From: Acidobacteriaceae bacterium
GTDB lineage: Bacteria > Acidobacteriota > Terriglobia > Terriglobales > Acidobacteriaceae
Assembly: GCA_043765355.1 (NCBI GenBank)
Contig: JAYUJG010000224.1
Location: 1 to 45,236, forward strand
DNA: 45,236 nucleotides
Direction: 5' to 3'
Below the pieces are notes generated by a model. It had not been told where the DNA came from. It saw nothing but the letters and a program-made list of their open reading frames with translations, and did not search any database. The position numbers and the translations under genes are program-made. Shown in pieces: positions 9,017 to 10,246 of this stretch. The stretch's first letter is position 1, and each line of letters begins with the position of its first letter.

Positions 9017-10246
9017 CTATTGCCGATTTGAAAGTGCGGCCGTGACGCGCGCCGAATCCGATTGTCGCCCACAACATGGCCCCGGCGGAATCGCAGCGCC
9101 GTGCGGGCAAGTAAGCGGATGGTTCAGGAAAGTGCAGATCTTGTCGGTAGCTTCGGGTGAGAGGATGTGCTCGAATTTGCAGGCCTGCTGCTCGATTTCC
9201 GTTTCGCTGTCCATGGCGAACGAATCGGTGAAGAGTCGCTCAGCCAGCCGATGACGCCGAATGATATCCGCCGCGCGCTGGTGTCCACGCGGCGTGAGTC
9301 CGATAATCAGAGAGCCGTCCCCCGTCGAAAAGCCAGCAGGTTTCAACGCGTCGTGGCACGGATTCACGAAAGGTTTGTGGTCGTGCGGTTCCGTAGGATG
9401 AGGCCGCGTCGTCACCAAACCCATGGCGGCCATTTTCTCCACTGCAATCGATACCGGCAGCGCGCCGTGGACTTCCATCCGCTCCATCTCGGCGATTTCG
9501 CCATGCTCTTCGAGGGCGAATAGTTCTTCCAGCACCTCATCAAATTGCTCGTCGTCGGCCATCGCAAAGACTTCCTGGGCGGCAATTTTGCCGTGATGCA
9601 ATTCGATGCGGCGATCCGCCAGACGCGCCACTACGGGATCGTGCGTGACCATGACGATGGTGCGTCCCTGCTGGTGAAGCTCTCGAAGCAGGCGCAAAAC
9701 GATTTCTTCGTTGGCGGCGTCGAGGTTGCCGGTCGGCTCGTCGGCGAGCACGATCTTCGGATCGTTGATCAAAGCTCGCGCAATGCAGGCGCGCTGCTGC
9801 TCGCCCCCGGAGAGCTGCGATGGAAGGTGTCCGGCGCGATCTTTCAGGCCGACGCGATCCAGTGCTTCGAGAGCTTCCTTTTCGTCGGTCATGCTGTGGA
9901 AGTATTGAGCCAGCATGACGTTCTCGACGGCGGTCAGATACGAAATCATGTGAAAATGTTGAAATATAAATCCAACCGTTTCGGCGCGAACGTGATTGAG
10001 GTCTGAGGCGCTGAGGTGCGCGACGTTCTTTCCATCGAGCCAAATCTCGCCGCTGGTGGGCCGATCCAGGCATCCGATGAGATTGACCATCGTACTCTTG
10101 CCCGAGCCCGAGGGGCCCATCATCGCGACCCACTCACCCGGCGCGATGGAAACACAAATGTCGTCGAGCGCCTGAATCAGGCTGAAGCCGCCGCTGCTTT
10201 CTTCGCGCGCGGGATAACTCTTCGTGACATTCTTAAGCTTGATCAT
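9017..10246 (-). CDS. ABC transporter ATP-binding protein (MacB/LolD-type) fused to a C-terminal DtxR/IdeR-like metal-sensor module
   Basis: 409 aa. The NBD carries Walker A GPSGSGKST, signature LSGGEQQR, Walker B IVLADEPT and H-loop VTHD. From about aa 233 it reads LEELFALEEHG...LPVSIAVEKMAAMGLV...LTPRGHQRAADIIRRHRLAERLFTD...ACKFEHILSPEATDKICTFLNHPLTCPHGAAIP. This parallels DtxR MRKHRLAERLLTD...ACRWEHVMSDEV. Confidence 0.9.
   Translation of the reverse strand: MIKLKNVTKSYPAREESSGGFSLIQALDDICVSIAPGEWVAMMGPSGSGKSTMVNLIGCLDRPTSGEIWLDGKNVAHLSASDLNHVRAETVGFIFQHFHMISYLTAVENVMLAQYFHSMTDEKEALEALDRVGLKDRAGHLPSQLSGGEQQRACIARALINDPKIVLADEPTGNLDAANEEIVLRLLRELHQQGRTIVMVTHDPVVARLADRRIELHHGKIAAQEVFAMADDEQFDEVLEELFALEEHGEIAEMERMEVHGALPVSIAVEKMAAMGLVTTRPHPTEPHDHKPFVNPCHDALKPAGFSTGDGSLIIGLTPRGHQRAADIIRRHRLAERLFTDSFAMDSETEIEQQACKFEHILSPEATDKICTFLNHPLTCPHGAAIPPGPCCGRQSDSARVTAALSNRQ

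Follow-up and report, generated by a model that had tools for sequence, protein, structure and literature searches.

Control of iron import in bacteria is usually described as transcriptional, exerted by Fur or DtxR, and post-translational feedback on it is poorly documented. Feedback on the transporter is known from ATP-binding cassette (ABC) systems in which the nucleotide-binding domain (NBD) is followed by an additional domain, C2/NIL in E. coli MetN, TOBE in M. acetivorans ModC and in MalK, and CBS in OpuA; in trans-inhibition the cytoplasmic substrate locks the NBDs and transport stops (PMC10710835, PMC11466899). The regulatory domains of NBDs covered in these two sources are of the TOBE, NIL, CBS and ABCA types; a DtxR-type domain is not among them, nor is any domain of a type VII ABC transporter. 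A ligand-bearing DtxR-family domain at the C-terminus of an iron-related ABC subunit occurs in Chlamydia trachomatis YtgC-YtgR (CT069), where it is attached to a Tro/Mnt-type permease, has a recognisable DtxR helix-turn-helix (HTH), is released by cleavage and binds its own promoter (PMC5599777). In Campylobacter jejuni and Yersinia, the FetMP-FetABCDEF (P19-Ftr1) cluster encodes the FTR1 permease FetM, the DUF2318/FtrD-like protein FetA, the permeases FetB and FetC and the ATPase FetD in one iron-regulated operon (PMC6083913, PMC10783030), and FetA, FetB, FetC and FetD are all required under iron limitation (PMC10783030). Here we describe a locus on contig JAYUJG010000224.1 of a soil bacterium of the Acidobacteriaceae (assembly GCA_043765355.1; the 45,236 nt of its forward strand are referred to as the window) in which a FetD-like ABC ATPase is fused to a DtxR/IdeR-like module.

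Judging from alignments, a predicted structure and analogy with known systems, we think it fairly probable that this module is a cytoplasmic Fe(II) sensor which allosterically gates the ATPase of a type VII ABC transporter linked to an FTR1-FtrD iron permease. Like MetN, ModC, MalK and OpuA, the protein has an extra domain behind the NBD, dimerisation is expected beneath the NBD pair and the residues of the substrate site are conserved. It differs from them in the DtxR/IdeR fold of the sensor, in being of the type VII MacB/FtsX type and not a type I importer, and in the separate path of the substrate through FTR1. Compared with YtgC-YtgR, it is the ATPase that carries the module, the HTH signature is lost together with the residues that contact DNA, and the operator is most likely a Fur box. 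A regulatory domain on an NBD and a DtxR domain on an ABC subunit were thus both known already; what is new is the combination of NBD and DtxR-like module, together with the Cys/His motif and the connection to FTR1 systems. No description of an NBD-DtxR fusion was found in open-access full text.

The ATPase and its DtxR-like module

The list of open reading frames (ORFs) and their translation gave a single ORF of 409 amino acids (aa) on the minus strand, made up of an NBD and a DtxR/IdeR-like two-domain module. Its parts, with the evidence for each, are as follows.

9017–10246, minus strand: fusion gene, FetD-like ABC ATPase plus DtxR-like sensor module (ORF, Pfam; stop codon at 9017–9019)
9581–10246, minus strand: NBD, aa 1–222 (NCBIfam MacB, LolD and FtsE alignments, motifs)
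9500–9580, minus strand: linker and helix alpha-1 of the DtxR-like head, aa 223–249 (alignments, model of the module)
9407–9499, minus strand: degenerate HTH and first wing strand, aa 250–280 (Fe_dep_repress, hhalign, fold match)
9314–9406, minus strand: wing insertion of about 31 aa, aa 281–311, starting RPHPTEPHDHKPFVNPCHDALKP (absent from the fusions of other lineages)
9071–9313, minus strand: second wing strand and dimerisation/metal-binding domain, aa 312–392 (Pfam, IdeR/DtxR matches, invariance)
9071–9139, minus strand: Cys/His motif ICxFLxHPxxCPHGxxIPxGxCC, aa 370–392 (alignment of 122 relatives)
9020–9070, minus strand: variable C-terminal tail, aa 393–409 (poor conservation, mean 0.42, and low predicted local distance difference test (pLDDT) values)

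A model's earlier sequence-only reading of this DNA had proposed an ATPase fused to a DtxR/IdeR-like module on the basis of peptides aligned by eye. All of these peptides were found in the translation (aa 329–341, 355–360, 239–249, 263–272 and 281–303, the last at nt 9338–9406), and the architecture itself was borne out by Pfam matches to ABC_tran (aa 27–172, E = 1.8e-33) and Fe_dep_repr_C and by an IdeR-like predicted fold. The best NCBIfam alignments of the N-terminal part were to MacB, LolD and FtsE over residues 1–222/226, in agreement with an NBD ending near residue 222 as read earlier. Every score lay below the respective equivalog cutoff, so that the NBD is of the MacB/LolD type, yet an orthologue of none of MacB, LolD and FtsE. 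Its catalytic motifs are complete in the translation and invariant in the family alignment, with Walker A GPSGSGKST at aa 44–52, the signature LSGGEQQR at aa 145–152, Walker B IVLADE at aa 165–170, ending at E170, and the H-switch at H202.

The fusion is genuine, and it is conserved. Species-representative genomes yielded 570 loci on scanning, and the 80 best of these, all from Terriglobia metagenome-assembled genomes, were examined. In 76 of the 80 a single open frame runs from Walker A through the DtxR module; two of the four exceptions are cut at a contig end and two (L030 and L067) have a broken frame. The order FTR1-FtrD, FtsX, FtsX, ATPase-DtxR is kept among related loci, with the fusion gene always last, and Polarisedimenticolia and the Ca. 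Acidoferrum lineage (P0158, over 100 clusters) have the same operon including the fusion, with sensor modules ~40–50% identical. Across the three lineages the fused frame is continuous in hundreds of metagenome proteins, and a few divergent fusions lie on unclassified metagenome contigs. A sequencing or assembly frameshift that joins two genes had been named in the earlier reading as one thing that would refute it, and the two broken frames, together with database entries that call the C-terminal part alone as "iron dependent repressor", might be taken to point to such an artefact of assembly or annotation. This explanation is refuted by the 76 continuous frames, by the metagenome proteins and by locus L088 of Polarisedimenticolia, where a "separate" repressor of 137 aa in the database turned out on re-translation to belong to one uninterrupted fused ORF. 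The database labels in use are "ATP-binding cassette domain-containing protein" or, for C-terminal fragments, DtxR regulator, which is a mislabelling.

The metal-binding part of the module is well supported. A profile hidden Markov model (HMM) search, which the earlier reading had proposed for both DtxR-family domains, matched Fe_dep_repr_C (PF02742) to aa 318–387 with E = 1.3e-23 and 83 bits against a cutoff of 27, and HMMER searches against the solved IdeR and DtxR chains gave E values of ~5e-12. In the MAFFT alignment and in the HMMER alignments with the IdeR and DtxR structures, H332, E336, E352, C356, E359 and H360 occupy the positions of DtxR H79, E83, H98, C102, E105 and H106, which agrees with the ligands picked out by eye, including the replacement of His98 by Glu. 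Across 122 relatives E336, C356, E359 and H360 are invariant and H332 is conserved in ~96–97%, and the position of DtxR H98 is variable (E, H, S or R). Helix alpha-1 carries the invariant D236 and, next to it, E237, which is aligned with DtxR Met10 and MntR Asp8; the residue at position 237 is Glu, His or Asp in 118 relatives, Lys in one and a gap in four fragments.

A second set of conserved residues, overlooked in the earlier reading, follows at C371, H376, C380, H382, C391 and C392 and has the core HPxxCPHGxxIPxGxCC. C371, H376, C380 and C391 are invariant among the 122 relatives, and H382 and C392 almost so. This motif marks an uncharacterised DtxR subfamily and is a possible extra metal or redox site. 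The protein ends 17 residues beyond the CC pair, and Pfam gave no FeoA match that would indicate an FeoA/SH3 third domain. With DtxR, IdeR and MntR the module shares the two-domain fold, the dimerisation domain, the H79/E83/C102/E105/H106 ligand set and a ligand in helix 1; it differs from them in being fused, in the loss of the DNA-binding signature and of DNA-contact residues, in lacking the SH3/FeoA domain with the ancillary ligands E170/Q173, in the change of H98 to Glu, in the extra Cys/His motif and in a wing insertion specific to one clade.

These features could also be those of a constitutive clamp, a module that joins two ATPase subunits, possibly with structural Zn at the Cys/His motif, and senses nothing. 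Fe_dep_repr_C is a dimerisation domain, the HPxxCPHG...CC motif resembles a structural Zn site, and the FetB- and FetC-type permeases of the operon differ from one another, which implies a heterodimeric complex, for whose shared ATPase an additional clamp is plausible. Clamping alone would not require invariant regulatory ligands, and for this reason the near-invariance of the DtxR primary-site residues (C102, E105, H106 and position 10) across lineages only ~40% identical disfavours it. The other MacB-type ATPases LolD and FtsE do without such a domain, and the feoB-associated relatives described below show the tie to iron machinery once more. We regard the clamp as improbable.

The N-terminal head of the module is more diverged. 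The second of the two HMM searches, with Fe_dep_repress (PF01325), left a faint signal (E = 0.06) that at 14 bits remained under the cutoff of 26, and among the 123 members of the subfamily only four matched the DtxR DNA-binding-domain model with E < 0.01. A profile of nine diverse family members was aligned with DtxR by hhalign with 99.3% probability over DtxR residues 11–136, in the register proposed earlier (LP-VSIAVEKM against GPTVSQTVARM), which confirmed both Ile at the position of the base-contacting Gln43 and the placement of the insertion within the wing. In this alignment DtxR R27 is replaced by Met, R33 by His, Q43 by Ile and R50 by Ala, and S37 and T40 have no counterpart; helix 2 is shorter than in DtxR, and LPVSIAVEKM forms the putative recognition helix. 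The AlphaFold model of aa 217–409, based on the 123-sequence alignment, had a pLDDT of 86 and a predicted template modelling (pTM) score of 0.81; its top Foldseek matches were two-domain IdeR and DtxR (E = 6e-8, target-normalised TM scores 0.73–0.77), and aa 218–247 form one continuous helix in it. The winged-helix fold is thus predicted to be retained and the residues that read DNA are lost, as the earlier reading of a degraded DNA-binding head had it. The net charge of the head is −12 here and −3 in DtxR. As a test of DNA binding, net charge gave a mixed picture, with the head at −12 here and helix 3 basic in the Polarisedimenticolia fusions, and it counts as weak support.

The wing insertion (aa 281–311, nt 9314–9406) had been described as about 30 aa rich in His and Cys. 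Its length and His content (four residues) were confirmed, and it holds only one Cys. It is confined to the Terriglobales/Solibacter clade and lacking in the fusions of the Ca. Acidoferrum lineage and of Polarisedimenticolia; among 76 orthologues its conservation is 0.87, against 0.88 for the NBD, and NPCHDALKP within it is invariant. The Acidoferrum lineage (for example L081, 8001–9212) has instead a conserved His/Cys-rich insertion, HGPSHPLNCPLxxTxDCC, in the linker between NBD and sensor, which resembles the C-terminal HPxxCPHGxxIPxGxCC and may represent another copy of a small metal-binding His/Cys element. The two insertions lie at different positions and were gained independently. Lineage-specific loops rich in His and Cys, and the many conserved metal ligands of a module fused to the membrane complex of an uptake system, would also suit an acceptor that takes Fe(II) leaving FTR1 in the cytoplasm and passes it on as a metallochaperone. 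For such a hand-off the module sits on the wrong protein, the ATPase rather than FTR1, its conserved sites coincide with the regulatory sites of DtxR, and we know of no chaperone role for the DtxR fold; we consider this explanation very unlikely.

The FTR1 operon and its operator

The fusion gene is the last of an operon bounded by a non-coding region upstream and by a convergent GH18 gene downstream. The remaining features of the operon are given below.

10294–11493, minus strand: FtsX-type permease, FetC-like (Pfam FtsX, weak MacB_PCD; syntenic)
11490–12920, minus strand: FtsX-type permease with MacB periplasmic core domain, FetB-like (Pfam FtsX, MacB_PCD 1.1e-11; synteny)
12821–14083, minus strand: FTR1 iron permease fused to an FtrD-like (DUF2318) domain, equivalent to FetM plus FetA (Pfam, motifs)
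14246–14268, no strand assigned: 23-bp palindrome TTGAAATTGAAATTCATTTTCAA (as read on the minus strand), probable Fur box, upstream of the operon

The first gene product matched Pfam FTR1 (1.8e-38) and FtrD-like (5.9e-29), and its NCBIfam match to EfeU was under the cutoff. Its translation contains two REGVE (RExxE) motifs and the pattern CxxC-x13-CxxC-x14-C, a motif as described for the Fet system (PMC6083913). The true start of the FetB-like permease may lie downstream of the listed ATG. In contrast to the Campylobacter and Yersinia clusters, FetM and FetA are fused here, and genes for P19 (FetP) or for the thioredoxins (FetE/F) were found neither within this operon nor in the operons of L081–L083 and L088, which extends the difference to three lineages. 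The ATPase differs from FetD by its DtxR-like module; the descriptions of FetD give ATP-binding motifs only (PMC6083913, PMC10783030).

The ATPase is of type VII (MacB/LolD/FtsE-like) and is partnered with FtsX/MacB_PCD permeases, and for this reason it is not a canonical importer motor. The earlier reading had taken it for the motor of a putative iron importer; by the identity of its partners it is instead an ATPase of the mechanotransducer type that aids the FTR1 system. As far as sequence comparison can tell, the ABC transporter is a FetBCD-like accessory to an FTR1 (FetM) and DUF2318/FtrD-like (FetA) system.

The palindrome upstream of the operon is near-perfect, is the sole match in the window and shares 14 of 19 positions with the Fur box of E. 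coli. It is conserved before FTR1 in at least 40 loci and has 0–2 mismatches in most related loci (L001–L080). An exact-match scan of metagenome contigs returned 120 occurrences, of which 75 belong to the FTR1 operon. Fifteen of the other 45 lie directly upstream of an ORF of the Fur family that reads away from the box (one scanned example: Pfam FUR, 4.7e-30); other boxes, each represented by a single scanned example, precede feoA and genes for PepSY_TM, an OprB porin, a penicillin-amidase (divergent from fur) and a flavoprotein. From this distribution the palindrome is most likely the Fur box of the lineage, subject to Fur autoregulation, and not a site of the fused module. Since it reads as a Fur box, the operon would have no need of the fused module as a repressor, and transcription is most likely handled by this separate element.

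In 11 Terriglobia loci (L038, L044–L046, L048, L049, L051, L054, L059, L060 and L067) the Fur-like box gives way to a second type of operator, AGTTGCAACTCAGTTGCAA, at ~−40 to −80 from FTR1, in which the palindrome AGTTGCAACT occurs twice. The putative recognition helix MEVHGALPVSIAVEKM is identical across loci with either type of operator, and the Ca. Acidoferrum lineage has a quite different helix, yet a box, TAGTTGCAAATGACTTACAACTA, that resembles the second type (L081 and L083, at −43). Helix and operator do not co-vary, which therefore argues against binding of the fused module to this operator. The palindrome at 14246–14268 was accordingly given up as the favoured candidate for a target of the fused module: helix 3 shows no co-variation with it, and the same box stands before Fur-family ORFs and other genes. 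The earlier reading had named the palindrome (as 14244–14264) for electrophoretic mobility shift assays with this protein, and on the same two grounds that sequence is most likely a Fur box instead.

These observations bear on an alternative in which the fusion would be a transporter-repressor like YtgC-YtgR, its module, tethered or released by proteolysis, binding DNA when loaded with metal and repressing its own operon or other genes. The two-domain DtxR fold with its winged helix is retained in the predicted structure, helix 3 is highly conserved in Terriglobales and basic in Polarisedimenticolia, and no gene for Fur or a second DtxR was found in the window or in the flanks of the fusion loci. 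Against these stand the DtxR DNA-binding signature kept in only 4 of 123 members, the replacement or deletion of residues that contact bases and phosphates, the net charge of −12 in the head, the occurrence of one helix with two types of operator and of a different helix with a similar operator, and the behaviour of the conserved operator as a global Fur box, including at sites that immediately precede fur. The N-terminus of DtxR is close to the DNA, and an NBD of 222 aa attached there should hinder canonical binding. The earlier reading knew of no characterised example; there is one, the Chlamydia YtgC-YtgR permease fusion, whose DtxR-like domain is cleaved off and acts as an Fe(II)-dependent autorepressor (PMC5599777). 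Because of this precedent the repressor deserves more weight than it was given there, and on all the evidence we still judge it unlikely.

Three further observations concern the upstream region. Here 183 bp separate the Fur-like box from the start of FTR1, against ~43 bp in most relatives; the window contains an extra ~140 bp at ~14100–14245, among them the GC-rich hairpin GGCACGGCTGAAGCCGTGCC, perhaps a small repeat element that was inserted. The TGTAAAC sites listed in the earlier reading comprise a palindrome, TGTAAACAGCGTTTACA, and a direct repeat of GTTTACA (~14418–14434 and 14115–14136). At locus L093, an ORF downstream of a Fur-like box (2733–3200, plus strand) has the first ~30 residues of FTR1 at its N-terminus (MLQAFIITLREGVEAAL...), followed by an FeoA domain; recombination, chimeric assembly and a genuine rearrangement are all conceivable origins.

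A possible metal gate on the ATPase

If the module gates the ATPase, the DtxR dimerisation domains would bridge the two ATPase subunits below the NBDs. Upon a rise in cytoplasmic Fe(II), the metal would tie helix alpha-1 to the dimerisation domain, as in the activation of DtxR. Helix alpha-1 is the carrier of ligand 237 and would be directly continuous with the last strand of the NBD, so that metal binding could fix the spacing or orientation of the NBDs, halt the ATPase cycle and switch off FTR1-dependent uptake within seconds. The principle would be that of trans-inhibition in MetN and ModC, with another sensor fold (PMC10710835). We assume inhibition and not activation because of the analogy with MetN and ModC and because iron overload has to be avoided. 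Direct allosteric feedback had been suggested in the earlier reading; after the alternatives have been weighed it stands as the best-supported explanation, while the mechanism is one that we infer.

Several points weigh against the gate. Metal binding, dimerisation and ATPase control by the module are predicted from alignments and structural models, and both the inhibitory sign and Fe(II) as the metal are assumptions. At the primary site, position 10 is a carboxylate as in MntR and position 102 a Cys as in DtxR; the retained Cys speaks for selectivity of the Fe/Co type rather than the Mn type. The full-length AlphaFold model is poor (pLDDT 65, below 50 in the linker), the stretch aa 218–247, a continuous helix in the model of the module, has low confidence in it, and the geometry between NBD and sensor cannot be read from it. 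The retained winged helix and the strong conservation of helix 3 within Terriglobales would also fit a role in binding DNA or protein, and helix 3 is net basic in the Polarisedimenticolia fusions. YtgC-YtgR, the sole characterised fusion of a DtxR domain to an ABC subunit, is a repressor (PMC5599777), and the function and substrate of the FetBCD ABC transporter are stated to be unclear (PMC10783030).

Should the gate exist, the DtxR-like module would add a new fold to the regulatory domains of NBDs (TOBE, NIL and CBS) and would be, within the literature searched, the first such domain found on a type VII ABC transporter. As a metal sensor within the ATPase of a transporter it would form a fast second layer of control, which would suit peat and bog soils with redox-driven swings in Fe(II), sites from which many of the related genomes come. 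The activity of a FetBCD-type ATPase would then probably be rate-controlling for uptake, because it is on the ATPase that the cells place the iron sensor, and this would offer a handle on the role of the FetBCD-type ABC transporter in FTR1/P19 systems (PMC10783030).

Free-standing relatives and flanking genes

The nearest unfused relatives are proteins of 215–236 aa with Fe_dep_repr_C and FeoA domains, ~35–45% identical to the module and encoded in metagenomes of Nitrospirota, Armatimonadota and Acidobacteriota. They have in common with the fusion the divergent head, the ligands, the HPxxCPHG..CC motif and a location in an iron-transporter operon; they differ in having an FeoA/SH3 domain in place of the NBD and are annotated as transcriptional regulators. 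In five of six contexts their genes lie immediately downstream of feoB, the sixth context being uninformative, and no separate feoA was seen within 5 kb at the feoB-linked contexts. In two of them (L084 and L089) fur is located just upstream of feoB. By their sequences and contexts the free-standing relatives could be local repressors or metal-sensing partners of FeoB of the FeoA type, and circumstantial evidence ties the subfamily repeatedly to iron uptake machines. A wider proposal, tentative and on balance doubtful, is that proteins with HPxxCPHGxxIPxGxCC have ceased to bind DNA and are cytoplasmic Fe(II) sensors that have been recruited at least twice to gate iron uptake post-translationally, by fusion to the FetD-type ATPase of FTR1 systems in Acidobacteriota and through an FeoA domain acting on FeoB in Nitrospirota, Armatimonadota and other Acidobacteriota. 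On that proposal they would be the first metalloregulator fold to have become an allosteric switch of a transporter, and the ABC ATPase would be the control point of iron uptake of the FTR1/P19 type.

At the feoB-linked loci L084 and L089–L092 the DtxR-like gene is found at ~5001–5680 or 6001–6680. Three loci have ORFs of 60–83 aa with no Pfam match between feoB and the DtxR-like gene.

An Rfam scan of the entire window gave zero matches to RNA families. The GH18 gene downstream of the operon is split across two frames, 7925–8653 and 8805–9254 (both plus strand), covering positions 60–228 and 284–314 of the Pfam profile, which suggests a frameshift or a pseudogene; its second open frame is convergent with the ATPase-DtxR gene and overlaps the 3' end of the latter by ~240 nt. 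The neighbouring genes at 5906–7739 and 14805–18391, which have no obvious link to iron, encode a glutaredoxin-like protein, an SDR, a PagL-like lipid A deacylase, an SprT-like protein, OsmC, an EamA transporter and an MFS transporter.

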